This document shows, piece after piece, positions 26,616 to 63,502 of a stretch of 64,000 bases of DNA. The position numbers were made by a program, and so were the translations under genes. The DNA is from Parcubacteria group bacterium LiPW_15 (GTDB taxonomy: Bacteria; Patescibacteriota; Minisyncoccia; UBA6257; 2-01-FULL-56-20). The stretch spans positions 5,139 through 69,138 of the forward strand of contig VMER01000001.1 of the NCBI GenBank assembly GCA_007375645.1, read 5' to 3'. The notes below the pieces were generated by a model. It was given only the letters and a program-made list of their open reading frames with translations, had not been told where the DNA came from and searched no databases. Within the stretch, counting starts at the first letter, position 1. Each line of letters opens with the position of its first letter.

Positions 26616-26979
26616 AATGGACTACGTAATCGACGCAAAAAACAGACCGCTCGGACGCGTTGCCTCCGAAGCAGCGCTCATTCTTCAGGGCAAAAAGAGC
26701 CCGGCTTATAATCCAAGAAAGATCGGGTCCGACCGCGTTCTTTTAAAGAACTACTTACAGGTCACTTTAACCGGAAGAAAGTTCAAGGAAAAACTTTACC
26801 ATCATCACACCGGGTACATGGGTCATTTGAAGACCGAAACTTTTGAGATGGCCTGGAACAAGGATCCAAAAAAAGTCATCCGTGAGGTTATACTTCATAT
26901 GCTTCCCAAGAACTTCATCCAGTCGAAGAGGATATTAAATCTAGTTTTCGTGGAAAATGGAGAAAAAGCAAATGATTAA
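26608..26979 (+). CDS. rplM: 50S ribosomal protein L13
   Basis: YVIDAKNRPLGRVASEAALILQGKKSPAYNP matches the L13 N-terminus. Confidence 0.9.
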   Translation: MYKMDYVIDAKNRPLGRVASEAALILQGKKSPAYNPRKIGSDRVLLKNYLQVTLTGRKFKEKLYHHHTGYMGHLKTETFEMAWNKDPKKVIREVILHMLPKNFIQSKRILNLVFVENGEKAND

Positions 26980-27466
26980 AAAAGAAGTTAAGGAAAAGAA
27001 GCCGATTGCCCACAAGGCTCCTGCGGATAAGCCGGTAGCTCATCATGCTGCCACCCATGCCGCTCCGGCGGTTAAGGCCGGCCGTTATTTTGAAGGCATT
27101 GGCCGTAGGAAGACTGCGTCCGCCAGAGTGCGTGTTTCTAAGGGCTCCGGAAAGTTTGTTGTAAACGGCCGCACAGTGGACAAATATTTTCAAACGAATA
27201 AACTCCTCGCTATCGCCGAAGAGTCGCTTAAAAGGCTCAATATGGCGGATAACGTGGATGTGAGCGTGAAGATCGATGGCGGAGGCATCAACGCCCAGGC
27301 CGAGGCCGTAAGACACGGTGTTTCTAGGGCCCTGGTCTTAATGCAGCCCGACTTAAAGCTCCAATTGGCCTCTCTGGGACTTCTGACCCGCGACTCCCGC
27401 ATGGTGGAACGCAAGAAGCCAGGTTTGAAGAAAGCCAGAAGGGCTCCGCAGTGGAAGAAACGGTAA
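26957..27466 (+). CDS. rpsI: 30S ribosomal protein S9 with N-terminal extension
   Basis: GRRKTASARVRVSKGSGKFVVNGR...PQWKKR C-terminus is the S9 signature. About 40 aa extra Lys/Ala-rich N-terminus. Confidence 0.9.
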   Translation: MEKKQMIKKEVKEKKPIAHKAPADKPVAHHAATHAAPAVKAGRYFEGIGRRKTASARVRVSKGSGKFVVNGRTVDKYFQTNKLLAIAEESLKRLNMADNVDVSVKIDGGGINAQAEAVRHGVSRALVLMQPDLKLQLASLGLLTRDSRMVERKKPGLKKARRAPQWKKR

Positions 27467-27470
27467 TTCA

Positions 27471-27497
27471 AAAGCTCCCCGAAAGGGGAGCTTTTAG
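27471..27497 (+). terminator. Intrinsic terminator after rpsI
   Basis: aaagctcccc-gaaa-ggggagctttt hairpin followed by a T-run. Confidence 0.8.
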
Positions 27498-27519
27498 TTT
27501 CTCCCATTGCGGAGATGGA

Positions 27520-27603
27520 GGGGGTCGGGGAGGAACGGGAAATGAGTTCCTCCCCGTGTTGGAATTACTCAGAACCGAGGGTTTTGAGGGAGCGGAGCGA
27601 CGC
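27520..27603 (+). repeat. Structured intergenic repeat, copy A (about 80 nt)
   Basis: gggggtcgggg...ctccccgtgt.gaattactca.aaccgagggtt.tgagggagcggagcga, about 85% identical to 43191..43269. Internal stem ggggagg/cctcccc. Confidence 0.75.
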
Positions 27604-27632
27604 CGCATTGGAAGAAACGTTAAAAAAAGAAA

Positions 27633-27658
27633 CCCCGCGAAAGCGGGGATTTCTTTTA
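27633..27658 (+). terminator. Second intrinsic terminator after the repeat
   Basis: ccccgcgaaagcgggg hairpin followed by atttctttt. Confidence 0.7.
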
Positions 27659-27877
27659 GTTCTCATTCTTGTAACCTTTGACAAGCCAACCCGTTATATT
27701 GTATGCTCCCGACCATGATTAAAAGTCATAACATCTTTAATAGCTTATTGCGGCAGGGGAACTTCGATTCTCCGAAGGCTGTATTTATTGCCACCAATTG
27801 GGGCACTTCTATGTTTGGCGATTGGCGACGCATATTTGATTTTCAAAAACATAAATAAAGGTAAATGTTTTGAAACC

Positions 27878-27915
27878 AACAATGCCTCGCTAATCAGCGG
27901 GGCATTGTTTTTTGA
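27878..27915 (+). promoter_or_regulatory. Leader hairpin plus U-tract (attenuator-like) upstream of the ABC exporter
   Basis: aacaatgcctcgc-taatca-gcggggcattgtt followed by ttttttg, 30 nt before the RBS aggagt and GTG start at 27945. A TTGACA -35-like hexamer lies at about 27679. Confidence 0.5.
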
Positions 27916-27944
27916 AAATTCAAACGAAAAGAAAGGAGTAGGTC

Positions 27945-29756
27945 GTGCGAAATCAAGGCAGTCTCCAAAACTCTGGAACGAATCCACTTCGCTATCTTTT
28001 CCAGAAAACGTGGCATTACTCGGCTGGGAACCGGGACAAGATAGCGTGGTACTGGACCATGTTCATCATGGCCGAGACCATCTCGCTTCTGTTCCATCCG
28101 CTCGTTATGGCCAAGCTGATGAACGTAATCCAGGCACAGGGCATCACAGATGCGAATATCAAATTCCTTTTGAAACTACTAGCGCTCACGCTTGTGATCG
28201 AAGTAGTGTTCTGGTCGCTTCACGGACCAGCGCGGCTCATTGAGAGGAACAACGCGTTCAAGGCTCGTGTCAATTATCGCAAGCACCTCTTGAAAGGCGT
28301 AATGACATTGCCGATGGAATGGCATGTGGAGCATCATTCCGGCGATACGATCGACAAGGTCGAAAAGGGAACGACAGCGTTATTTCAGTTTTCGAAAGAT
28401 TCTTTCGAGGTGATCTACGCGATAGTTCAACTTGTCGTGAGCTACGCGATGCTCATTTATTTCAGCAGATCGGCCGCGTATATCGTTCTGATCATGATGT
28501 TTGTCACGGCGTGGATTACTACGCGGTTTGACAAGGTGCTGATTGGGCAGTACCGAGACCTGAACCATGCCGAGAATAGCGTCTCGGAGAGCGTTTTTGA
28601 CTCCATCTCCAACATAACTACGGTCATCATCCTCCGGGTCGAGCGGCTTGTCTTCGAGGCGATCATCCGCAAGGTTGAAAAACCCTACGAACTCTTCGGA
28701 CGCAATAACCGCATAAACGAAACAAAGTGGTTTTTGACGGAGATGTGTTGCAACGTGACGACCATTCTTGTCATGGGCGCATACCTCTTAAAGAATGTCG
28801 GGGCCCATGAAGCCATTCTGATCGGGAACCTCTACATTCTCCTCAAGTATCTCGATAAAATGGGCGACCTCTTCTTTCGATTCACGGGCATGTACAGCGA
28901 CATTCTCCAGTGGAAAGCCAAGGTTATGAATGCCGAAGAGCTGGCCAAAGATTTTCGGGCAGAGAACTTCACGAACCATGTTCTGCCGAAAGACTGGCAA
29001 ACGCTCAAGATCGGAGGGCTTAACTTCTCCTATCGCAACGGAGATGGAGCCAACCTTGATCTTAACGACATATCTCTTTCCATCGCGCGCGGAGAACGCA
29101 TCGCCTTTGTCGGCGAAAGCGGAAGTGGCAAAACAACTCTTTTGAAAATCATGAGAGATTTGTATCATCCGCAGAGTATGTCACTCTCGGTTGATGGCGC
29201 AATCATCCCGCAGGGGTTTGAGGGTATCAGCCGGGCAATCGCGCTTGTGCCGCAGGACCCGGAGATATTCGCAACTACTATCCTTGAGAACATAACGCTG
29301 GGCGCGGAATACGACGCCTCTTTCGTTAAACGATTCACGGATATGGCTTGCTTTACGGACGTCGCAGAAGGCCTGCCTCACGGATTGGATTCCTCGGTCA
29401 AGGAGAAAGGAGTTAATCTGAGCGGAGGTCAGCAGCAGCGTCTGGCGCTAGCCCGCGGGCTTCTTGCCTGCCACGACAAAGACATCGTTCTTTTGGATGA
29501 ACCGACCAGCAGTCTTGATACGGCTAATGAACTCCGGATATATCAGAACATTTTCCGTGAGTTCGGCGACAAGACCGTTGTTTCTTCGGTTCATCGCTTG
29601 CACCTTCTCCCGCTGTTCCACCGCCTATATTTTTTCAGCGGCGGACAGATCATTGCCTCGGGCAGCCTGGAAGACTTACTGCTTACCTGTCCCGAGTTTC
29701 AGGGTCTATGGCAGCAGTATCACGAGCGAAGCGGCCAAGAAGGCGCTACGCGCTAA
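27945..29756 (+). CDS. ABC transporter, fused permease/ATP-binding exporter (type I exporter)
   Basis: Six-TM N-terminal domain. Walker A GESGSGKTT, signature LSGGQQQRLALARGLL, Walker B IVLLDEPTSSLD, H-loop. GTG start. Confidence 0.8.
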   Translation: MRNQGSLQNSGTNPLRYLFQKTWHYSAGNRDKIAWYWTMFIMAETISLLFHPLVMAKLMNVIQAQGITDANIKFLLKLLALTLVIEVVFWSLHGPARLIERNNAFKARVNYRKHLLKGVMTLPMEWHVEHHSGDTIDKVEKGTTALFQFSKDSFEVIYAIVQLVVSYAMLIYFSRSAAYIVLIMMFVTAWITTRFDKVLIGQYRDLNHAENSVSESVFDSISNITTVIILRVERLVFEAIIRKVEKPYELFGRNNRINETKWFLTEMCCNVTTILVMGAYLLKNVGAHEAILIGNLYILLKYLDKMGDLFFRFTGMYSDILQWKAKVMNAEELAKDFRAENFTNHVLPKDWQTLKIGGLNFSYRNGDGANLDLNDISLSIARGERIAFVGESGSGKTTLLKIMRDLYHPQSMSLSVDGAIIPQGFEGISRAIALVPQDPEIFATTILENITLGAEYDASFVKRFTDMACFTDVAEGLPHGLDSSVKEKGVNLSGGQQQRLALARGLLACHDKDIVLLDEPTSSLDTANELRIYQNIFREFGDKTVVSSVHRLHLLPLFHRLYFFSGGQIIASGSLEDLLLTCPEFQGLWQQYHERSGQEGATR

Positions 29757-29798
29757 AGTTCATGACCGCCAATATGCGAAAGCTGAGGCGGTTTTTTA

Positions 29799-31097
29799 TT
29801 ACTTCGGTATCGTGAGACTCCAGACTTTTCCGTCCAGGACGTAGTAGAGAATGTTTCCTTCTGTATCGTAGGCGGCGTTTGTGGAATTTGCGAGATGTTG
29901 GATATTTTCCGGATCAACCGCGGAGAAATCCAGGAGTCCTACTCCACTTCCGAGATTCAAGAGGAGGTGCCTCTCATCTCGATACCAAGAGACGGAATTT
30001 ATATATGGATAAGCGCTGAGATTCAAGCGGACATAATCGCCGTCTTTTGAATATATTTCCAGAGTTTTTTCCCCGAGAATCGCGGTCCAGGCGCCGCTTG
30101 GAGAAAAACTGAATTGTCGTACGTTTTCGCTCTTTTTCTCCAAAGTGCCGCTTAAAAGATCATAAAAATATAACTCCGCGTTATCTTGTAAGAGCCCCAG
30201 GATATTCCTCGAAGACAGTTGCATTTTGTATGTTTTTCCGGGAAGCGAGACATCAATCTGGGAAACTCGGCCCAAGAGTCTTTCGTAGGTGAAGATCGTG
30301 GAAGTCGCGTATTTTGCGTCATAGACGGCCCAAGCAATGAGCCCGCTTGCGGGGGACACCGCTTCTACGATCTGACTCTTTGTGGAGGTAAATATTTTTG
30401 TGGGGACTTTTCCCGCTTCAAGAAGAGAGACCTGCGCAGTGGAATAGGAGATCAATTGATTTGAACCGGTATCCAATATATAAGATTTGGCAGATGCGAG
30501 TTTCTGCGCGGAGGGTTTTATCCCGGCGGATAATTTAATTAGATAAAAATTTCCCTTGGAATCCGAAGTTAAAAGTTCATTATTGTCTGCAGATTGGTCA
30601 ACGACATTGGTTCCCGGGATCAGAGTTTCGCCCGCATATATTTTTCCTCCGATCTTTAAAACCACCGATCCGTCCTGGAAAGTATAAATATTTTGCGCAT
30701 CTTTTTCAGAAAAAATATCCCGTTTTTCAGGCAGAAGTATTGGATTGAGCTCCGTGACGAGCGATGGTTCTACGGAAACGGTTCTTCTCCAGTTTTCATA
30801 ACCTTCCAATTCCAGCTCCACTTTGTAGGTTTTTGGGAAAAGGCTTTGGACCAGCACTCCGGAGCTTAAAATGCCGCGCGACTCCTCCCGCTTTTCGCCG
30901 TCCAGAAAGATATCGGCGTCCTTTGGATGGCTCTGTATATAAATCGCCCCAACCTTTTTAACGCGCATAGTCGCGAAGTCAAATCTATAGCCCTGTGCAT
31001 AAAGAATAGTTCCCGTTCCAAGCACCAAAAATACCCCCAAAAGGGCATATAAAAGGGCCTTTCTAAAGCTTTTACTCACAGGCCTATTATATTCCAC
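29799..31097 (-). CDS. PEGA domain protein with C-terminal beta-propeller-like region
   Basis: N-terminal TM. PEGA-like block IQSHPKDADIFLDGEKRE...YKVELELEGYENWRRTVSV. Remainder is beta-strand-rich. Confidence 0.55.
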   Translation of the reverse strand: MEYNRPVSKSFRKALLYALLGVFLVLGTGTILYAQGYRFDFATMRVKKVGAIYIQSHPKDADIFLDGEKREESRGILSSGVLVQSLFPKTYKVELELEGYENWRRTVSVEPSLVTELNPILLPEKRDIFSEKDAQNIYTFQDGSVVLKIGGKIYAGETLIPGTNVVDQSADNNELLTSDSKGNFYLIKLSAGIKPSAQKLASAKSYILDTGSNQLISYSTAQVSLLEAGKVPTKIFTSTKSQIVEAVSPASGLIAWAVYDAKYATSTIFTYERLLGRVSQIDVSLPGKTYKMQLSSRNILGLLQDNAELYFYDLLSGTLEKKSENVRQFSFSPSGAWTAILGEKTLEIYSKDGDYVRLNLSAYPYINSVSWYRDERHLLLNLGSGVGLLDFSAVDPENIQHLANSTNAAYDTEGNILYYVLDGKVWSLTIPK

Positions 31098-32839: not shown

Positions 32840-32857
32840 TAGTCGGGCTGCCGGGAA
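32840..32857. repeat. Direct repeat of the tRNA-Pro 3' end (att-like)
   Basis: tagtcgggctgccgggaa is identical to 33020..33037, the 3' acceptor/T-stem of the minus-strand tRNA-Pro. Lies 165 bp downstream of the tRNA 3' end. Confidence 0.7.
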
Positions 32858-33022
32858 AATTTCACTACTCGGCTTTTAGCCTGTGTTTTCCGAACCCACG
32901 GTTCTGAATAATCTCCTCCACGGAGGGGACGATATTGCGTCCCCTCCGACCCACCCCTCCGTTCAATTCCCGGCACAAAAAATAAAATAGCCTGCCGATA
33001 AAAGGCAAGCTATTTTATTTAG

Positions 33023-33093
33023 TCGGGCTGCCGGGAATTGAACCCGGTCTACATGCACCCCATGCATGCGTACTACCGGTATACTACAGCCCG
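33023..33093 (-). tRNA. tRNA-Pro (anticodon GGG)
   Basis: Manual cloverleaf on the minus strand: acceptor CGGGCTG/CAGCCCG, D-arm GTAT-ACCGGTA-GTAC, anticodon stem CATGC/GCATG with loop ATGGGGT, T-arm CCGGG-TTCAATT-CCCGG. Confidence 0.8.
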
Positions 33094-41630: not shown

Positions 41631-41702
41631 GGCGCTATCGTCTAGTGGCTAGGACACCGCCCTTTCACGGCGGGAACAGGGGTTCGATCCCCCTTAGCGC
41701 TA
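41631..41702 (+). tRNA. tRNA-Glu (anticodon TTC)
   Basis: Manual cloverleaf: acceptor GGCGCTA/TAGCGCT (G1:U71 wobble), D-arm GTCT-AGTGGCTA-GGAC, anticodon stem CCGCC/GGCGG with loop CTTTCAC, T-arm AGGGG-TTCGATC-CCCCT. Confidence 0.85.
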
Positions 41703-41718
41703 CGTGTTTAGAGAAAGA

Positions 41719-43227
41719 ATGCTAAATAGGTTTTACGAGATTCTTCCGGGCAGTCTTGCCTGGGCCACCCTTATTGGTATGGTCGTTTTTTCCTGGGTAC
41801 TGCCGACGGCGGTTTCCGTTTTTATAATTCTTTTTGATATCTACTGGCTTTTGAAGACCGTCTATCTTTCATTACACCTGCGTTCGACTTTCTCCGAAAT
41901 GAAGCAGAACATGGCCACCGATTGGCTTTCGCGACTCAAAAAAGAAAAAACCGGCTGGGAAAATATCGAACACCTGATAATTTTCCCGATGTATAAAGAG
42001 CCGTATGAGGTGGTCAAAGAAAGTTTTGAAAGTTTAACGCACGCAAATTATCCGAAAGAAAAAATGATGGTGGTTTTGGCCATCGAAGAATTGGCGGGGG
42101 ATTTTGCCAAAGATGTCGCGGAAAAAACTAAAAAAGATTTTGAGAAGAGGTTCGGCGCGTTTCTTATAACTGTCCACCCTAAAGATTTACCCGGGGAGAT
42201 TCCCGGCAAGGGAGGCAACGAAACTTGGGCTGCCAAAGAAGCAAAAAAAATTCTTATTGATGGAAAGCTAGAGCCGCAAAATGTTCTAGTCTCGTCTTTT
42301 GATGTGGACACTCAGATATTTTCGGAATATTTCGGGAAACTCACTTACACCTTCCTTTCCGAAGAAAATAAATTGCGGGCAATCTACCAACCAATTCCAT
42401 TTTTCACGAATAATGTTTACGACAGTCCGGCCATCGCACGAGTTATATCTTTTTCTTCTACTTTCTGGCAGATGATGCAGCAATCGAGACCCGAAAGACT
42501 TACTAGCTTTTCCTCGCAATCGATTCCCCTGAGCGCGCTTATGGATGTGGGTTTCTGGCACACGGATATGGTCTCTGAGGACTCCCGCATTTTCTGGCAG
42601 GGATATTTAGCTTATCACGGAGATTTTCGCGTCGTTCCGCTTCACTATCCCGTTTCTATGGACGCGAATGTCGCTCACACTCTTTGGGGGACTATGAAAA
42701 ATCTTTACAAACAGCAAAGGCGTTGGGGCTGGGGCTGTGAGAATATCCCGTATATGTTGGGTGGCTTTAGGAAGGACCCGAAGATCCCGGCCGCGAAAAA
42801 AAGATACTGGACATTTCAGGTGCTCGAGGGATTTCATTCCTGGGCTACGAACTCGATCATGATCTTCGCGCTCGGCTGGCTCCCGGTGTATCTTGGCGGA
42901 AAAACTTTTAATCTTTCATTGTTGTCGCACAGTTTGCCGGACATCACTCGGCTTATAATCCAAATTTCCATGCTTGGTATCGCAAGCTCCGCCATTTTGG
43001 GCATCATGCTTCTGCCTCCGAAGCCCGTTTGGTTCAAACCCTACCATTACGCTCTTTATGTTTTGCAGTGGGCGCTTATCCCGGTTTCGCTCATAATTTT
43101 CGGTGCGATTCCAGGACTTGAGGCGCAGACGAGACTGATGCTCGGCGGAAAGTTTAGGTTGGGATTTTGGGTAACCCCAAAATCCCGAAAGGGGGTCGGG
43201 GGAGAGCGGAAGGGCTCCCCCGTGTAA
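41719..43227 (+). CDS. Membrane glycosyltransferase, GT2-like (cellulose-synthase-like motifs)
   Basis: N-terminal TMs. DVDT (DxD-like) and QQRRWGWG (QxxRW) motifs. C-terminal TMs. Start ATG 41719 preferred over GTG 41704, which abuts the tRNA. The last 12 codons lie in repeat copy B. Confidence 0.55.
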   Translation: MLNRFYEILPGSLAWATLIGMVVFSWVLPTAVSVFIILFDIYWLLKTVYLSLHLRSTFSEMKQNMATDWLSRLKKEKTGWENIEHLIIFPMYKEPYEVVKESFESLTHANYPKEKMMVVLAIEELAGDFAKDVAEKTKKDFEKRFGAFLITVHPKDLPGEIPGKGGNETWAAKEAKKILIDGKLEPQNVLVSSFDVDTQIFSEYFGKLTYTFLSEENKLRAIYQPIPFFTNNVYDSPAIARVISFSSTFWQMMQQSRPERLTSFSSQSIPLSALMDVGFWHTDMVSEDSRIFWQGYLAYHGDFRVVPLHYPVSMDANVAHTLWGTMKNLYKQQRRWGWGCENIPYMLGGFRKDPKIPAAKKRYWTFQVLEGFHSWATNSIMIFALGWLPVYLGGKTFNLSLLSHSLPDITRLIIQISMLGIASSAILGIMLLPPKPVWFKPYHYALYVLQWALIPVSLIIFGAIPGLEAQTRLMLGGKFRLGFWVTPKSRKGVGGERKGSPV

Positions 43228-43269
43228 GAAATTACTCAAAACCGAGGGTTGTGAGGGAGCGGAGCGATG
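43191..43269 (+). repeat. Structured intergenic repeat, copy B
   Basis: gggggtcgggggagagcggaagggctcccccgtgtaagaaattactcaaaaccgagggttgtgagggagcggagcgatg. Stem gggggag/ctccccc is conserved with a different loop relative to copy A. Confidence 0.75.
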
Positions 43270-43336
43270 ATTTTGTGGTCACGCCGAAACATAGGAAAGC
43301 CTAAAAACTTAATTCCAAAGTGCTATAATATTCTTA

Positions 43337-44146
43337 GTGGTTAATCCATTTAAGAAATTTTTTGGTCGTGAGGTTAAAAAACGTGGAGGTTTTACTCTCA
43401 TTGAGATGGTGGTCTTTACCGCCATTTTTACGGTGACCATAATCGCGTTTATTTCCGTTCTCATTTCCATAACCCGCACCCAGGTTCGGCAGAGTGCGGT
43501 GGCGGAGGTAAATCAGCAGAGCCAATTTGTTCTCCAAGCCCTCCAATATTATGTAGAGCGTTCCAGCCTCATCGAAACCGCGTCCACCGAGGCCACTACC
43601 ACCATCACGCTTCGGATGACGAACACTCTTGAAGATCCGACTTTAGTTTTTGCGAGCGGCACGCAGATCTATTCCAAAGTCGGCACCGATCCGGCACAGG
43701 CTTTAACGAGCGGCAAGGTAACGGTCTCTAACTTCTCAATGTCAAAAAGAGTGAATGCTCCGGGTAAGGATTCGCTCGCGGTAACCTTTTCCATTTCCTA
43801 TAACACGGCAAATCCTCAACAGCAGTTTTCACAAGCGCTTCAATCGGCGGTCGCGCGCGTGAATGCCGCAACTTTTGATTCCGGAATTTTTCCGAATGCG
43901 GATAATACGCTGAAGCTTGGTGCAACTTCGCAAACTTGGCAGTCCATAAATGACGTTATTTATTTCAGCGGAGCGAAAGTCGGGATAGGCGGAACGCCAG
44001 CCGCACTTTTTCAGGTTCATAACGGCGATGTTTATATAGACAGTTCGAGCAACGGCTTGGTTCTTAAGTCATCGGGTGGAACATGCTACAGGCTGACCGT
44101 CACGAACGGCGGTTCGGCTACCACGACGGCTATCGCTTGTCCGTAG
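43337..44146 (+). CDS. Type IV pilin / pseudopilin (prepilin-type N-terminal domain)
   Basis: Canonical cleavage/methylation motif KRGGFTLIEMVVFTAIFTVTIIAFISVL (G|FTLIE). 269 aa Ser/Thr-rich globular part. Confidence 0.8.
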   Translation: MVNPFKKFFGREVKKRGGFTLIEMVVFTAIFTVTIIAFISVLISITRTQVRQSAVAEVNQQSQFVLQALQYYVERSSLIETASTEATTTITLRMTNTLEDPTLVFASGTQIYSKVGTDPAQALTSGKVTVSNFSMSKRVNAPGKDSLAVTFSISYNTANPQQQFSQALQSAVARVNAATFDSGIFPNADNTLKLGATSQTWQSINDVIYFSGAKVGIGGTPAALFQVHNGDVYIDSSSNGLVLKSSGGTCYRLTVTNGGSATTTAIACP

Positions 44147-45258: not shown

Positions 45259-48093
45259 ATGATGAGGAATAAAACAAATGTTATCAGGATGGCCGGTTTG
45301 TTTTTCCTTGTCTTGGGAGTGGCTCTTGCGGCGCAAAGTTTTGCCATAACCGGTCCCAGCGCCGGTGCCGGAGTCGGCAGTGGTTTGATAGATGTTGAAC
45401 CCACGGGGACAGGCAATCTTAGCGTTGGCGCAACCGCCGCGGATACAAGTACAAAATTTCAAATTACCGGCACAACCGCCAATAGTAGCGCCTTTGGTTT
45501 GAAAGTTTGGCCCTCAAGCGGTTCGGTTAATTTTCAGGTCAGAAATGACGGCGTTGTCTCTATTACTTCAACCACCTATATCGGCGGCAGCATATGTTTC
45601 GGAGCCATCGGGGCCACCGACTGCGTGTCCTCTTGGAGCGGCGTTGGCGGGGGAGTGACTTCCACTCCGGCCGGATATGTGACCCCCGGATATTTTAATT
45701 CTATCGCGGGAACGGGCGGGAATTATAGTTTTCCGGCAGCGCTTTCTATCGGAACCTCCACTGCTCCGTCGGGCGGAGTTTTGTTCGTGAATGGCAATAT
45801 TGGAATAGGGACGGCAGCGCCTGGGGTAAAAGTAGAAATTTTCGGCACTGATAATGCTCTTAGATTAACTTACGACGCTACTCACTATGCTACCCTCGCT
45901 GCCGGAAATTCAGGTAAGCTCACGGCATCATTTTCCGGTTCGGGATCCACTGGCGGGTATCTGGATATAACCCAGGCTCATACCTACTACGGATTTTTAA
46001 TTCATAGCGGCGCAAGCTGGGGCGGACAGGGGTTGATCGGTACAAATAAAGATTTAGGGATCTCTACCGCAACAACCACTCAAGATATAGTTTTTTACGG
46101 TAATAATTTTAGCGCTAATGAATACGTGAGAATAAAGGGCACGGGTAATGTCGGTATTGCGACAACAACACCGGGAAGTAAGCTAACCGTTGCCGGAGCG
46201 ATCTATTCCTCCACCGGCGGTTTCAAATTCCCCGATGGTACTACCCAGACGACTGCCGCTGGCGCAGGGACAAGCTACTGGACCCTTTCCGGTACCGGTT
46301 TATATCCGACTTCTACCGCGTATCAAGTTGGCATCGGAACGACAGAGCCGCACTATCCGCTTGAGGTTTACGGAACCTCAAATAAATTAGGCATAACCTA
46401 TAGCTACAGCGCCTTGGCGGGAGACTCAACCGGCGGAGAACTGTACGCGAGTAGCAACGGGGACCTGCATATCAATGCTAAGAGAGCGACCACCCTTATT
46501 GAAAACAGAAATATTTTATTATCCGAGGCGGGGGGCAATGTTGGAATAGGCACTTCGACTCCCGGGAGCCCCCTGACTGTTGTAGGGGCAATTTATTCCT
46601 CCACCGGCGGTTTCAAGTTCCCCGACGGCACCACCCAGACGACTGCCGCAACCGGCGGCGGAGGGACCAACTACTTCACTCTTTCCGGGACCAGCCTTTA
46701 TCCTACGTCCACCGCATATGAATTGGCTGTCGGTACCGCATCGGTAGACACAAATTACGCTATCACTACAGCCGGAGGCGGCATAAAGGCGGAATCAACG
46801 AGCCAACCGGCTGGATATTTTAATTCTTCTTCCGGCTACGGTCTTATCGTGAATACCGGAAAAGTTGGAGTTGGAACAACTACGCCTGTCGGAATGTTCA
46901 CCGTAGCTACTTCTACCGGTGCCGGATTCTTCACCGTTCTTCCAAACGGGAATGTTGGAGTCGGAACCGCAAATCCAACTCAAAAGTTCCACGTAATTGG
47001 AGCTGCCTATGCGGATTCAAATATGCAATCTCCTACCGGGTACTTTAATGTTCTTCGCCCGCTAACCACCGGAGGAGATCTTAGGTTTTTGGATAGCACA
47101 AGCACCGAAAGGATGAGGCTGGCTTCCACCGGCAATCTTGGAGTTGGAACGTCAACGCCGAGTGCAAGATTGGATGTGATGGGAAACATACTCGCCGGAG
47201 ATCGAGCCTCAACCGCTGATGGTTATCTGGATTTTGGAAGTAATGGCGCCGGATCGGCTAGGATTGCTAGGACCGGAATGGGGGCAACCGATTCGTCTTT
47301 GGTATTATCCACCACTTGGGGCACTCTTCAAGAAAGGATGAGAATTACCGGGTTGGGCAAAGTTGGTATTGCCACCACAACTCCCGGCAGCCAGCTAACC
47401 GTTGCCGGCGAAATATATTCCGCGACCGGCGGCTTCAAGTTTCCGGATGGAACAACGCAGACGACGGCGGCGACCGGCGGCAGTGGAACTAATTATTTTA
47501 CTCTTTCCGGAACAAACCTGTATCCGACCTCTACCGCGTATAAAGTTGGCATAGCTACCACTACTCCCGGTTATCCGCTAACGGTGGATGGAACGTCTAT
47601 GTTTACCGGGACCATGACCATCGGTTTAACCGGTGCAGGCAAATTAAACGTCGGAACAGTTGACCCGCCGTATACGATAAACGGCATGCAATACGCGACT
47701 TATATGCCCGGTATGACCGGACAAAAAGAAGAAACTACCGGGGAAGTTAACGTTCGGTGCCAGTCAGACTCCAGGTGCGAATATGTTATTGATTTTAAGA
47801 GCGTCGAGAGGGGGAGCGATCTTTGGCTTTTTGCGAAGACGACCAACTTGAAGGCTCAGATGAATAAACTGACCGTGCTTCTGACGCCATCTTTCAACGG
47901 AAAAGTTTGGTATGAAAAAGACGCGAAAAATATGGTTTTGAAAATATTTGGCGTCCCCTCCAAAGCCTTGGCGAAGGAGGGCCGTTCCGATCTTTCCGTT
48001 TCGTATCGTCTTACCGCGCCTCGCTTTGATTCGGCGAATTGGCTAAATACCAGGAACGAGCCAGGTGTCAACGGTTTCGTAATTAACGACTAA
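45259..48093 (+). CDS. Large secreted repeat protein (fiber/adhesin-like)
   Basis: Signal peptide. Three copies of about 55-aa unit (L/K)LTVAGAIYSSTGGFKFPDGTTQTTAA.G..T.Y.TLSGT.LYPTSTAY at nt about 46195, 46584 and 47404. Many (N/K)VG(I/V)GT(T/S)TP short repeats. Gly/Thr/Ser-rich. Confidence 0.6.
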   Translation: MMRNKTNVIRMAGLFFLVLGVALAAQSFAITGPSAGAGVGSGLIDVEPTGTGNLSVGATAADTSTKFQITGTTANSSAFGLKVWPSSGSVNFQVRNDGVVSITSTTYIGGSICFGAIGATDCVSSWSGVGGGVTSTPAGYVTPGYFNSIAGTGGNYSFPAALSIGTSTAPSGGVLFVNGNIGIGTAAPGVKVEIFGTDNALRLTYDATHYATLAAGNSGKLTASFSGSGSTGGYLDITQAHTYYGFLIHSGASWGGQGLIGTNKDLGISTATTTQDIVFYGNNFSANEYVRIKGTGNVGIATTTPGSKLTVAGAIYSSTGGFKFPDGTTQTTAAGAGTSYWTLSGTGLYPTSTAYQVGIGTTEPHYPLEVYGTSNKLGITYSYSALAGDSTGGELYASSNGDLHINAKRATTLIENRNILLSEAGGNVGIGTSTPGSPLTVVGAIYSSTGGFKFPDGTTQTTAATGGGGTNYFTLSGTSLYPTSTAYELAVGTASVDTNYAITTAGGGIKAESTSQPAGYFNSSSGYGLIVNTGKVGVGTTTPVGMFTVATSTGAGFFTVLPNGNVGVGTANPTQKFHVIGAAYADSNMQSPTGYFNVLRPLTTGGDLRFLDSTSTERMRLASTGNLGVGTSTPSARLDVMGNILAGDRASTADGYLDFGSNGAGSARIARTGMGATDSSLVLSTTWGTLQERMRITGLGKVGIATTTPGSQLTVAGEIYSATGGFKFPDGTTQTTAATGGSGTNYFTLSGTNLYPTSTAYKVGIATTTPGYPLTVDGTSMFTGTMTIGLTGAGKLNVGTVDPPYTINGMQYATYMPGMTGQKEETTGEVNVRCQSDSRCEYVIDFKSVERGSDLWLFAKTTNLKAQMNKLTVLLTPSFNGKVWYEKDAKNMVLKIFGVPSKALAKEGRSDLSVSYRLTAPRFDSANWLNTRNEPGVNGFVIND

Positions 48094-60764: not shown

Positions 60765-61157
60765 ATGGAAAACGAAAAAATAGAAAAATTAGTAACCGAA
60801 GCGGAAGAAACCAGACTCATAGAGGCAGCCAAACTGCATGCCGAGTCTGTGGAGGGAAAAGAAATGAAGGGTGAAGAACTAATGAAGAAGGCAATTCAAT
60901 CCGTAACTCAAACCGTGCCGGTTCCGGAGCAGGCTGAGCCAAATTCCATTCAGAATCCTTTGACCGATTACACCGCGCAAGAACCGGAAGAAGTAAAAAG
61001 GAAGATCGAAGATCTTCTGCAGATCGCGGCGACCGATGGAATAGTCAGGGCTACGGAGGCGGCAAAACACGCCTCACCTTTCATCCTGGATGCTTTTCAT
61101 GACGCTTTAGCGGCAAAAGTCTATCCATACCTTCGGGAGAAAGGATTATTCAAATAA
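60765..61157 (+). CDS. Hypothetical acidic protein
   Basis: 130 aa, precedes the coupling ATPase with a 1-nt overlap. Confidence 0.4.
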   Translation: MENEKIEKLVTEAEETRLIEAAKLHAESVEGKEMKGEELMKKAIQSVTQTVPVPEQAEPNSIQNPLTDYTAQEPEEVKRKIEDLLQIAATDGIVRATEAAKHASPFILDAFHDALAAKVYPYLREKGLFK

Positions 61158-63502
61158 TGCTCACAGCCCTTTTTGTTTTTTTGGTGGCCGCAATACTCTC
61201 CGGGATCCTGTTTTTTGTTATCCGGTCCATTCATCGCAAGCGAACCATAAAAGATTCGCTGGAATACTCGCTTTTTGTGGTTCGTCTGCCAAAAAACCAA
61301 AAAACCGAGGGCCAGGACCCTAAGGCGGAGATAAATAAGTTCGAAGAATTTTTAAGCAGTTTACAAGGCCTAAAAAAACCGATGACTTTTGAGGTGGCGG
61401 TTCCGCATATCGGCGAAGAAATATCTTTTTATATTTCCGTGCCGAACGAGTTTACGGAAATGGCCAGACGGCAAATTCAGGGAATTTGGACCAAAGCAAG
61501 TATAGAAGAGGCGAGAGAAGATTATAATATTTTCAATTCCACCGGAGCCGCCTCCGCCGTATATTTGGCGCAAAAAGAGAATTTTTCTTTGCCCATAAAA
61601 ACTTATGAAGGCTTCGGCGCGGATACAGCCGCCGCGATATTCGGCGGTTTTACGAAGATGAGCGAGATAGGCGAAGGCGCTTCGCTTCAGATAGTTTTGC
61701 GTCCGGCCAAAAGCGAAGCCAGAAAAACTTTGAATTCGCATCTGGGTTCGTTCAAGAAGGGTTGGACCCGCAAGCAGATATTCGCGAGCGGTTTTTCCGC
61801 TGCCATAAAATCTTCAAGCCCCAAAGATGACAAAGAAAAAGAGCCTAAAGTCTTGGATGAAGAAGCGATAAAAATGTTGCAGGCGAAAACGAGCAAGCCC
61901 TTGTTCGAGGCCAATGTTCGCATTGCCGCAAGCGCTCCGATCCAGGTCCTCTCCGATAACATTTTGGGCGGCATAGCCGCAGGTTTCGAGCAATTTTCCT
62001 TGCCGCAGGGCAACCAGTTCAAAATAGTAAAGCCGAAAAATCCAGGCAACCTGATATTCGATTTTGTTTTTCGGGCCTTTAATGAAAACCAGAAAATAAT
62101 TTTGAATTCCGAAGAGATCGCAAGTTTTTATCATTTTCCGACTTCCGCCACGGAAACCCCGCGAATGAACTGGCTGAAATCCAAGGAAGCCCCTCCGCCG
62201 TCCGAACTCCCTTCGGAAGGAACTTTGATCGGGGAGAGCATTTTCCGCGGGGAAAGAAAGCCTATACGCATAACCGACGAAGACCGCCGCCGCCATATTT
62301 ATATAGTTGGTCAAACCGGAACCGGTAAAACTGTTTTTATAAACAATTGTGTAATTCAGGATATTGCCCGGGGCAAGGGCCTCGCAATAATCGATCCGCA
62401 TGGAGACCTGGCGGAAGCGGCTCTTGCGAATGTTCCTCCCGAAAGGATGAACGACGTTATTTATTTCAGTCCCGCGGATCTCCAGAAACCCCTTGGACTC
62501 AATATGCTCGAATACAACTTCGATCGGCCGGAGGAAAAGACTTTTATCGTGAACGAGATGCAGAGCATTTTTAATAAGCTTTTCAGCCAGGAAACCATGG
62601 GCCCGATGTTCGAACAATATATGCGGAACGCCCTTCTTCTCCTTATGGAAGACATGGTGAACGAACCGGCGACCCTCATCGAAGTTCCGCGTGTTTTTAC
62701 CGATCCCGAATTTCGCAAGCGAAAACTCGCGCGCATCAAAAATCCCACAGTCATAGATTTCTGGGAGAAAGAGGCCGCGAAGGCTGGCGGAGACGCGTCG
62801 CTTGCGAACATGACGCCTTATATAACCTCCAAGTTCAACAACTTTATTTCCAATGACTATATGCGGCCGATAATCGGTCAGGCCAAATCCTCCTTCAATT
62901 TTCGGGAGGTGATGGATTCCGGAAAGATACTCCTCATCAATCTTTCGAAGGGTAAGATCGGCGATATTAACGCTAATCTTTTGGGCATGGTGATAACCGG
63001 CAAACTCCTGATGGCCGCGCTCTCGCGCGTGGATATCGCCGACCAGAATGCCCGCAAGGATTTTAATTTATATATAGACGAATTCCAGAATTTCACGACC
63101 GATAGTATTTCCACCATTCTTTCGGAAGCGCGCAAATACCGTTTGAATCTGACGATCGCGCACCAATTCATCGCTCAGCTTACCGAAAAAATAAGGGATT
63201 CTGTTTTCGGCAATGTCGGCGCGCAGATAGTTTTCCGGGTTGGCGTGCAGGACGCGGAGTTTTTGGTGAAGCAATTCGAACCGGTCTTTGACGTTAACGA
63301 TCTTATCAATATCCCGAATCTTAATGCGCATGCCAAAATTCTCATAAACGGCCATCCGGCAAACCCGTTTAATTTGAGGGAAGGTTTTCCGCCAAAAGGG
63401 AGCTTGGAGGTGACTGAGAAACTTAAGGAGATGTCGCGTTCCCAATACGGAATGGAACGTAATACGGTGGAAGAGGAGATATATAGACGCTTACGGACAT
63501 GA
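61157..63502 (+). CDS. Type IV secretion/conjugation coupling-protein-like ATPase (VirD4/TraD/TraG family, AAA-like)
   Basis: N-terminal TM. Walker A HIYIVGQTGTGKT, Walker B LYIDEFQNF. C-terminal region similar to TraD-type coupling proteins. Confidence 0.6.
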   Translation: MLTALFVFLVAAILSGILFFVIRSIHRKRTIKDSLEYSLFVVRLPKNQKTEGQDPKAEINKFEEFLSSLQGLKKPMTFEVAVPHIGEEISFYISVPNEFTEMARRQIQGIWTKASIEEAREDYNIFNSTGAASAVYLAQKENFSLPIKTYEGFGADTAAAIFGGFTKMSEIGEGASLQIVLRPAKSEARKTLNSHLGSFKKGWTRKQIFASGFSAAIKSSSPKDDKEKEPKVLDEEAIKMLQAKTSKPLFEANVRIAASAPIQVLSDNILGGIAAGFEQFSLPQGNQFKIVKPKNPGNLIFDFVFRAFNENQKIILNSEEIASFYHFPTSATETPRMNWLKSKEAPPPSELPSEGTLIGESIFRGERKPIRITDEDRRRHIYIVGQTGTGKTVFINNCVIQDIARGKGLAIIDPHGDLAEAALANVPPERMNDVIYFSPADLQKPLGLNMLEYNFDRPEEKTFIVNEMQSIFNKLFSQETMGPMFEQYMRNALLLLMEDMVNEPATLIEVPRVFTDPEFRKRKLARIKNPTVIDFWEKEAAKAGGDASLANMTPYITSKFNNFISNDYMRPIIGQAKSSFNFREVMDSGKILLINLSKGKIGDINANLLGMVITGKLLMAALSRVDIADQNARKDFNLYIDEFQNFTTDSISTILSEARKYRLNLTIAHQFIAQLTEKIRDSVFGNVGAQIVFRVGVQDAEFLVKQFEPVFDVNDLINIPNLNAHAKILINGHPANPFNLREGFPPKGSLEVTEKLKEMSRSQYGMERNTVEEEIYRRLRT

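Follow-up and report, generated by a model that had tools for sequence, protein, structure and literature searches.

Three copies of a repeat in the window

What is the sequence that recurs behind the ribosomal protein gene rpsI and in the end of a glycosyltransferase gene of this bacterium, and how did it come to be there? The original prediction, made from the whole 64,000-nt stretch of DNA analysed here (the window), placed two copies at positions 27520 and 43191 and proposed a structured RNA or a MITE rather than coding sequence. Both copies are present at these positions. The count was too low, since a third copy, more diverged than these two, turned up downstream of a tRNA-Pro gene on the minus strand (positions 32963-32858) in a repeat scan and a search with a relaxed motif. 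The similarity of the first two copies had been put slightly too high, at about 85%; their cores (27520-27602 and 43191-43267) are identical in 67 of 84 alignment columns, or about 80%. A 28-nt block at the 3' side, AACCGAGGGTTNTGAGGGAGCGGAGCGA, occurs exactly twice in the window, while 0.00 occurrences are expected on the basis of 100 shuffles. A covariance model assigned 72-76.5 bits to the three copies and at most 14 bits to any other part of the window. The copies are designated W1 (rpsI), W2 (the GT2 glycosyltransferase gene) and W3 (tRNA-Pro).

A further feature, overlooked in the original prediction, is a duplicate of the 3' end of the upstream gene flanking each copy. The order of the parts is the same at all three sites: the gene end, X(1), is followed by a hairpin whose 3' arm, x1', repeats the beginning of X in inverted form, then by a conserved core, E, of about 90-110 nt, and finally by a second direct copy of the gene end, X(2). 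The W1 site comprises the following features.

26957..27466, plus strand: rpsI (ribosomal protein S9), the target gene of W1 (ORF; PF00380 homologues)
27446..27502, plus strand: X(1), consisting of the final 7 rpsI codons (CCGCAGTGGAAGAAACGGTAA), terminator T1 (27470-27495) and TTTTAGTTTCTC (direct repeat family D8)
27497..27512, plus strand: x1', GTTTCTCCCATTGCGG, which repeats in inverted form the beginning of X, CCGCAGTGGAAGAAAC (from the fold)
27511..27602, plus strand: core E (covariance-model match of 73 bits at 27511-27593)
27515-27523, plus strand: putative purine third strand of E, with the turn at T27525 (read from the sequence)
27526-27556, plus strand: hairpin 1 of E
27568-27588, plus strand: hairpin 2 of E
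27589-27602, plus strand: 3' tail of E, GGAGCGGAGCGACG
27603..27664, plus strand: X(2), the displaced rpsI end CCGCATTGGAAGAAACGTTAA, which reads PHWKKR*, and terminator T2 (stem 27633-27648)

The relatives of this RpsI protein carry the names Liptonbacteria, Paceibacterota or Minisyncoccia; a look-up of the exact protein sequence gave no entry. At W1, x1' lengthens the terminator hairpin downward into the coding end of rpsI, and T2 is the same hairpin as the terminator found after rpsI at metagenome locus L004. Local alignment of the two flanks (27446..27502 against 27603-27664) yielded a score of 45, compared with a 99th percentile of 27 for controls, and X(1) and X(2) differ by G-to-T at two positions within family D8.

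At the W2 site, the repeat overlaps the target gene itself.

41704..43227, plus strand: GT2-family glycosyltransferase ORF, the target gene of W2 (PF13632)
43161..43186, plus strand: x1/x1' hairpin, GGGATTTTGGGT / ACCCCAAAATCCC, within the GT2 coding end
43182..43267, plus strand: core E (covariance-model match of 76.5 bits at 43182-43260; tail to GAGCGA at 43267)
43268..43304, plus strand: X(2), the displaced GT2 end, DFVVTPKHRKA* (ORF 43167..43304)

The earlier suspicion that the repeat artificially extends the C-terminus of the GT2 protein proved right. The last 11 codons of the ORF (43195-43227, GVGGERKGSPV*) are E sequence, and the protein ends in ...GFWVTPKSRK-GVGGERKGSPV*, compared with ...GFWVTEKIRK* in the orthologues at loci L122 and L079, which stop earlier. 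The X(2) sequence DFVVTPKHRKA* resembles both the upstream GFWVTPKSRK and the orthologue end GFWVTEKIRK*; the native-type end of the gene persists downstream of E as a pseudo-end.

The W3 site, on the opposite strand, has a tRNA gene as its target.

33022..33093, minus strand: tRNA-Pro(GGG), the target gene of W3 (ARAGORN; Rfam tRNA)
33020..33037, minus strand: X(1), the tRNA 3' end TTCCCGGCAGCCCGACTA (exact 18-nt direct repeat, family D14)
32984..33016, minus strand: terminator-like hairpin T1
32961..32975, minus strand: x1', TGCCGGGAATTGAAC
32858..32963, minus strand: core E (core 32883-32963 and a 3' module to 32858; covariance-model match of 72 bits)
32840..32857, minus strand: X(2), a second exact copy of the tRNA-Pro 3' end (family D14)

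Here, x1' is the exact complement of the T-loop, the 3' strand of the T-stem and the next two bases of tRNA-Pro. Identity of 99.5% across W3 in an independent contig (L104) rules out the assembly duplication that had been considered for the repeat. The gene content of the window is of the ordinary housekeeping kind, with no genes of mobile elements; Pfam scans of 40 window ORFs detected no transposase, integrase, HUH endonuclease or reverse transcriptase domains.

A family of elements at gene 3' ends

A metagenome scan with the 17-base motif ATTANTCANAACCGNGGGTT retrieved at least 120 loci; about 112 of the 120 listed carry the full element and come from dozens of independent metagenomes. Together with the three copies in the window, this disposes of the possibility of a repeat limited to two copies. 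In species-representative genomes, the 3' tail pattern matched twice by chance (Paenibacillaceae and Alphaproteobacteria), and neither match fits the covariance model; the source species is therefore absent from these representatives. A scan of viral contigs returned 0 matches. The repeat of the window belongs to a large family of small non-coding elements of Patescibacteria (CPR) that appears not to have been described before.

Positions could be scored for the 91 copies with enough flanking sequence among the matches listed. Forty-six are located 13-188 nt past a co-directional tRNA or tmRNA gene, with at least 18 tRNA identities represented, 36 lie past the stop codon of a co-directional ORF at a median distance of 24 nt, and nine belong to no clear position class; none of those scored follows an opposite-strand tRNA. 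The placement first proposed, between a terminator or gene end and a promoter region, is thus better stated as the 3' end of a co-directional gene, which holds for 82 of the 91 copies among the matches listed. Most copies sit behind an intrinsic terminator or a strong terminator hairpin, and the targets in the window and among the matches listed include tRNAs, tmRNA, rpsI, the GT2 gene and many further ORFs.

The flanking duplications are also a property of the family. Among the matches listed, 77% of copies have a direct repeat X that scores above the 95th percentile of permuted locus pairings, and 70% have an inverted x1' above it. X is variable in length, from about 15 to 80 nt (74-80 nt at L013, about 37 nt at L072 and 30 nt at L016), and at L013, L016, L072 and L112 it runs on, at or near 100% identity, into the non-conserved, locus-specific trailer or terminator. 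The x1' sequence is 10-17 nt long and ends about 2 nt 5' of E; a typical insert measures 100-160 nt, and long near-perfect hairpins were found upstream of every E examined. Insertion leaves the gene intact, as its final 15-80 nt (X) occur on either side of E.

Several loci depart from the simple unit. Tandem arrays are present at L115, the distal part of X(1) at L009 is homologous to the native gene end but diverged from it, and at L062 a 227-aa cargo ORF with no Pfam match is inserted between the tRNA and x1'-E-X(2). A search of 125 loci for long autonomous versions, recognised by X repeats far upstream, brought up L062 and L037 only. The latter was rejected as an autonomous version: an unrelated serine-recombinase island is located between the tRNA and the E unit, leaving E outside and having another junction.

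Movement between targets

Among the copies listed, clustering revealed cores differing by no more than 2 of 61 nt at eleven targets, namely the ends of tRNA-Asn, tRNA-Trp, tRNA-Thr and tRNA-Gly, two rpsI genes, one GT2 gene and four other ORFs. All these near-identical cores have an x1' and an X(2) of their own, matched to the local gene. The presence of near-identical cores at unrelated targets indicates that the element moves, and the local match of x1' and X(2) suggests that the flanks are newly made at every target rather than carried along.

Occupancy of individual sites varies. L003, the closest relative, with an RpsI that is 97% identical over the core, has an empty rpsI site, and a diverged version of E is found there in L004, while L051, L060, L076 and L111 have a standard E at the rpsI site despite an RpsI identity of only 50-61%. 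In GT2 orthologues with 48% amino-acid identity, E occupies the same C-terminal position, the cores being 74-78% identical. Even inside clusters of near-identical cores, the 3' tail, GAG(C/T)GA-N3-9-GAGCGAC(G), is hypervariable.

Fold of the core

The folding and covariance check that had been suggested for the repeat was carried out with RNAalifold on an alignment of 97 core sequences. It yielded two hairpins, both with compensatory changes: 7 of 9 pairs of hairpin 1 and 2 of 8 pairs of hairpin 2 (60/80 and 64/76) show double compensatory changes. The observation that an internal hairpin keeps its stem while the loop differs was well founded, both arms and the loop being changed between W1 and W2 with pairing retained. 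From 5' to 3', E consists of a purine tract, hairpin 1, an invariant GG-A-N-ATTA segment, a conserved hairpin 2 and a variable tail. The GG-A-N-ATTA segment is predicted to be single-stranded in the folded element. The tail, GAGCGA...GAGCGAC(G), often contains GCGAAGC, a sequence that recurs within an insertion in the T-loop of many X(2) copies.

Next to the T(C) turn, on its 5' side, lies a purine tract that mirrors the 5' arm of hairpin 1, and the two change together. Over seven successive positions, the triples follow the code G*G-C, A*A-T or T*A-T, with which 81% of them are compatible, against 50 +/- 1.7% after column shuffling, a control that leaves the relatedness of sequences and subfamilies uncorrected. 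On direct reading, all three window copies fit the triple code, and W1 has nine consecutive compatible triples (27523..27515 against 27527..27535: four G*G, A*A, two G*G, T*A and A*A). This code is that of an intrastrand triplex of the purine (reverse-Hoogsteen) motif, which the 5' domain would form with its third strand at the 5' end. Such an arrangement, with the reverse-Hoogsteen strand at the 5' end, is termed class I (Holder et al. 2015, PMC4666352), the BoxC/TMECO repeats of E. coli being a class II precedent (PMC4666352). In terms of the three-block criterion used for PIT, BoxC and TMECO, E contains, in succession and with short loops, a homopurine strand, its Watson-Crick pyrimidine complement and a mirror-repeat purine (or T) third strand. 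The T*A-T triples are frequent, and the complementary strand cannot mimic them as a pyrimidine-motif triplex. Purine-motif triplexes reportedly do not form in RNA (PMC4666352), and GCGNAGC is described as an extraordinarily stable DNA mini-hairpin (PMC13037366). Taken together, the triple code, the GCGAAGC sequence, the position after terminators and the lack of an Rfam match argue for a fold at the DNA level. Mismatches in the aligned stems comprise about 14 G-T and 6 A-C.

One could hypothesise instead that E is a structured non-coding RNA, either an sRNA derived from the 3'-UTR or a cis-regulator, produced by read-through, and that x1' and X(2) pair with the gene 3' end to serve, for example, processing, stability or termination control. 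Such a role would suit the constant orientation of E just downstream of a gene, the two covarying hairpins, the z-score of -4.1 for the RNA fold of W1 and the ability of x1' to pair alternatively with X(1) or X(2) in a switch-like manner. However, the fold of the minus strand is as stable as that of the plus strand, most copies are preceded by a strong terminator hairpin, and no promoter-like site was found upstream of E at W1 or W2. At the Rfam gathering score, only three tRNAs matched in the window and the repeat remained unmatched; even at E<=10, the W1 and W2 sites returned low-scoring terminator-like noise alone. The triple code includes T*A-T, and purine-motif triplexes of this kind are reported not to form in RNA (PMC4666352). 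Neither the target duplications nor the tandem arrays at L115 nor identical cores at unrelated genes with rebuilt flanks are accounted for, and we consider an RNA function of this kind unlikely. The original alternative of a structured RNA or a MITE thus stands in so far as E is a structured, non-coding interspersed repeat, for which MITE-like is nearer the truth than coding; the RNA reading gained no positive evidence, and E is not a classical MITE.

Junctions and a possible mode of insertion

At L013, the final 6 nt of X, ACCCAA, are already able to pair with TTGGGT close to the beginning of X; exactly AAAC is added by the insert, and this completes the complement to the first base of X. Such a pattern would be expected if a strand end folded back, or re-annealed at a microhomology, and copying then ran to the end of a template. 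This junction favours, with modest confidence, a copy-choice process that is primed by the target and proceeds on a single strand. We regard E as more likely than not the core of a non-autonomous family of mobile DNA that is widespread in Patescibacteria/CPR, acts as folded single-stranded DNA and is inserted by copy-choice or target priming with an enzyme supplied in trans.

In such a process, an enzyme encoded elsewhere in the genome would move E to a hairpin-forming gene end, where a strand end at the target could prime the copying of E. The local target might then be copied by fold-back, giving x1', and re-annealing at downstream microhomology would allow X to be copied again. These template-switch steps would account for both the variable-length duplication and the locally templated inverted copy. 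They are deduced from the anatomy of the junctions, and our confidence in them is modest. No excised or intermediate form of E was seen among the sequences, and the strict co-orientation with the upstream gene would also suit an RNA-mediated step.

Three details are left unaccounted for by the template-switch model. In tRNA copies, X(2) opens with the generic GTGAGATTCC and not with the local T-loop, forming a tandem G.A opposite x1', and the 3' arm of the hairpin passes over the complement of the acceptor 3' strand. In rpsI copies (W1, L004, L051, L076 and L111), CAA/CAG is changed to CAT/CAC in X(2), resulting in a T.T mismatch.

A bolder version can be offered tentatively, and we doubt it more than we credit it: E could be the cis element of a bacterial mobile DNA of a new kind, one that generates flanks matched to its target by single-strand fold-back and template switching primed at a hairpin-forming gene end, with the x1'/X(2) stem, including its designed central mismatch, and the triplex serving as the substrate for the next round. 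If true, this would be a DNA-templated, self-reprogramming targeting system that has no described counterpart.

The same stem can be read in another way, as part of a folded single-strand recombination site. Here x1'-E-X(2) would be the site, its stem would mimic the duplex target and act as a DNA guide, and a tyrosine recombinase of the host or of an element would carry out the reaction. Indeed, x1' and the start of X(2) form inverted repeats around a structured loop of about 95 nt, and the centre of the stem has systematic imperfections (T.T in rpsI copies; tandem G.A in tRNA copies, with GTGAGATTCC opposite GGAATCGAAC; the GCGAAGC insert). CTX phage reportedly integrates, in the published model, as a single-stranded circle, and the order X-rest-x1'-E-X would be expected from integration of this type. 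It is because the imperfections are regular that a folded guide hairpin retains some credit. Against it, the flanks are rebuilt for each target despite near-identical cores, so that a pre-formed guide needs an extra step; no recombinase was identified and no circle junction was seen, and the perfect 74-80-nt duplications at L013 resemble duplication in situ. On balance, such a site seems improbable.

A tRNA duplicate that spans the T-loop to the 3' end is a hallmark of integration into tRNA genes, and the ends of tmRNA and rpsI genes are targets of integrases. The units could thus be attL/attR scars (CIME-like) or miniature derivatives of integrase-driven elements at gene 3' ends, in which E would be a conserved attP arm region and X an element-borne replacement of the gene end. 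A T-loop-to-3'-end tRNA duplicate does occur here, the insert is flanked by a direct repeat of the target 3' end, and tmRNA and rpsI ends are among the targets; the 227-aa cargo ORF of L062 and the divergence of the distal X(1) from the native gene end at L009 also fit. To our knowledge, a protein-only integrase has one attB, whereas one core of E is found at no fewer than 18 tRNA species, tmRNA and many unrelated ORF ends, and three different targets are occupied in a single 64-kb window. Moreover, X continues at about 100% identity into the locus-specific trailer, x1' is locus-specific, no integrase domain is encoded nearby in the window, the far-repeat search gave no longer autonomous versions, and the island at L037 has its own serine recombinase and a different junction. 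We therefore judge an origin as integration scars to be quite improbable. An assembly artefact, chance similarity or meaningless local duplication deserves practically no credence in view of the chance expectation of 0.00, three copies in different contexts, the 99.5% identity of L104 across W3 and more than 100 copies from dozens of metagenomes.

Two further candidates were rejected. A DGR, with X(1) as VR and X(2) as TR, does not fit differences that are not at adenines, tRNA targets and 40 window ORFs in which no RT domain was found. An X(2) derived from cDNA of a mature tRNA ending at m1A58, similar to a retroviral primer-binding site, was discarded since X(2) has the genomic trailer and not CCA; trailers are observed in W3 (CTA...) and also at L010, L016 and L072.

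Comparison with known elements

Among described repeats, BoxC, PIT and TMECO share with E a short, conserved, multi-copy intergenic sequence with three blocks in purine-motif triplex code, the absence of an associated transposase and a link to local genome rearrangement (PMC4666352). TMECO belongs to class II, with the formula CCCTCNCCC N3-6 GGGNGAGGG N3 GGGNGAGGG, whereas E is of class I, with the reverse order and another sequence; TMECO also has no strand bias relative to genes and no reported target duplication (PMC4666352). Unlike TMECO, E has about 60 nt more of conserved sequence with hairpins, strict co-orientation with the upstream gene, and direct and inverted copies of the gene end.

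Like MITEs, REPs and BIMEs, E is small, non-coding, structured, multi-copy and intergenic, lies mostly 3' of genes and would depend on an enzyme in trans; REP elements are mobilised by RAYT HUH transposases. Unlike a MITE, it has no conserved terminal inverted repeats, its ends being an A/G-rich ...GGGGGTC (5') and ...GAGCGACG (3'). Its flanking inverted repeats, x1'/X(2), differ from locus to locus and match the local target, and the duplication is variable at 15-80 nt, in contrast to the fixed 2-10 bp of MITEs. No autonomous partner with the same ends was found in the window or by the far-repeat search of 125 loci. The IS200/IS605-derived PATE and REP/RAYT systems insert without target duplication beside a fixed tetra- or pentanucleotide, while for E long duplications are usual and no common short motif was evident at the junctions read. 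IS1634/IS1549-type elements are autonomous DDE elements with conserved inverted-repeat ends and unusually long, variable direct repeats, and are not known to carry an inverted target copy; they are similar to E in having variable target duplications of tens of bp.

Integrative elements at tRNA, tmRNA and other gene ends, and their CIME remnants, resemble E in the 3'-end direct repeat, the functional upstream copy and occasional cargo (L062). E differs from them in its dozens of unrelated targets, its insert of 100-160 nt, its extra inverted copy and its lack of an associated integrase. The attP(+) of CTX phage and integron attC sites have in common with E an imperfect stem with central mismatches or extrahelical features that closes a variable or structured loop. 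Both are recognised as single-stranded DNA and have a fixed partner (dif and attI, respectively) and a conserved stem sequence or structure, whereas the stem sequence of E is that of whichever gene end hosts the copy.

The variable-length target duplications, junction microhomology, hypervariable tail at one end and putative trans-acting enzyme of E have parallels in target-primed reverse transcription (TPRT) of SINEs and LINEs and in twin priming. E differs from TPRT retroelements in the absence of a linked reverse transcriptase, the lack of evidence for RNA and the DNA-like fold of the core, and we know of no bacterial target-primed, template-switching retroelement system of this kind. Literature searches on CPR repeats, MITEs and tRNA-end duplications found no description of such an element, and the CPR phyla go unmentioned in a survey of prokaryotic MITEs from 2024. 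E is best described as a non-autonomous structured interspersed repeat, and there is a substantial chance that the insertion chemistry itself is new.

Implications for CPR genomes

In the tiny genomes of CPR bacteria (Patescibacteria), few mobile elements have been recognised. A density of about one copy per 20 kb, at the ends of tRNA, tmRNA and ribosomal-protein genes across very divergent lineages, would make E a major unannotated component of these genomes. No described pathway of transposition or integration fits the E junctions, in which a long duplication of variable length occurs together with an inverted copy templated by the local target and a tail that is hypervariable; the enzyme responsible for moving E may thus belong to a new type and could find use in programmable insertion. 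A natural purine-motif triplex of seven triples with three-way covariation would also rank among the clearest comparative signals for a functional DNA triplex.

At the level of individual genes, E extends ORFs, as in the GT2 gene of the window, adds long hairpins at gene ends, and creates pseudo gene ends and partial tRNA copies, which confuse annotation and the prediction of att sites.

A possible modular variant of E and an island next to E

A second conserved module, GTTCTCG..GCTCTTGGAGCG.AAGCGAC.TAGAG...CGTAATCCC, was recognised in two contigs, L005 and L095, in association with the arrangement typical of E, the conserved core of the proposed mobile element:
L005:6676-6735, at the rpsI end, flanked by an inverted copy of the gene end (x1') and a pseudo-end, arranged as around E
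L095:2780-2840, minus strand, within a copy of E, where it replaces hairpin 1, the first of the two covarying hairpins
The module may represent either a modular variant of E or a sister family.

In another contig, L037, tRNA-Trp and the E unit are separated by a 10.3-kb island (L037:1924-12200), whose insertion point lies precisely between the two. The otherwise identical L046 lacks this island (L046:4300-4680). The following genes are carried by the island:
Large serine recombinase, adjoining tRNA-Trp
TnsA-like endonuclease
Type III restriction helicase with N6/N4 methylase
SDH-type protease
This appears to be a defence island, using the tRNA end in common with the small E element.

Gene context in the window and related loci

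Downstream of rpsI, a convergent gene for a PEGA-domain protein follows directly in two related loci (L003:3250-3330 and L004:8230-8280), whereas in the window (27700-29800) the two genes are separated by an ABC transporter gene, which adjoins the E insertion:
27945-29756, ABC transporter gene, 603 aa
The difference is due to one of two events: a gene was gained locally, or the site of the E insertion was rearranged. L004 also contains an unrelated, hairpin-rich insert of 84 nt between the rpsI stop codon and the rpsI terminator (L004:7929-8012); no further copies of it were found among the loci fetched.

The window encodes putative DNA-transfer or uptake machinery, which could bear on a single-strand DNA element. 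It comprises a 781-aa protein (61157-63502) with weak matches to coupling-protein domains of the VirD4/TraG/TrwB type, as well as pilin-like genes:
383-1618, type IV pilin-like genes
43337-44146, type IV pilin-like genes
These are followed by a long ORF:
45259-48093, ORF of 944 aa, after the pilin-like genes
A repeat scan revealed within it a 117-nt direct repeat (77% identity, spacing 390 nt, 46143-46649) and more repeats, of 32 nt, at 46855-47159. These repeats indicate that its predicted product is a surface protein or is associated with the pilus, and that it is internally repetitive.

The listed ORF of the GT2 gene starts with a GTG codon at 41704, immediately after the end of tRNA-Glu(UUC) at 41703 (region 41631-41704). 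The real start is probably located downstream, since the alignment with the GT2 protein of locus L079 begins at residue 4.

Two further tRNAs were called by ARAGORN in the CPR contig L040:
L040:2171-2244 and L040:2563-2634, minus strand, a tRNA with anticodon UUA ("tRNA-Stop") and another with a two-base anticodon
Possible explanations are a suppressor tRNA and a miscall.
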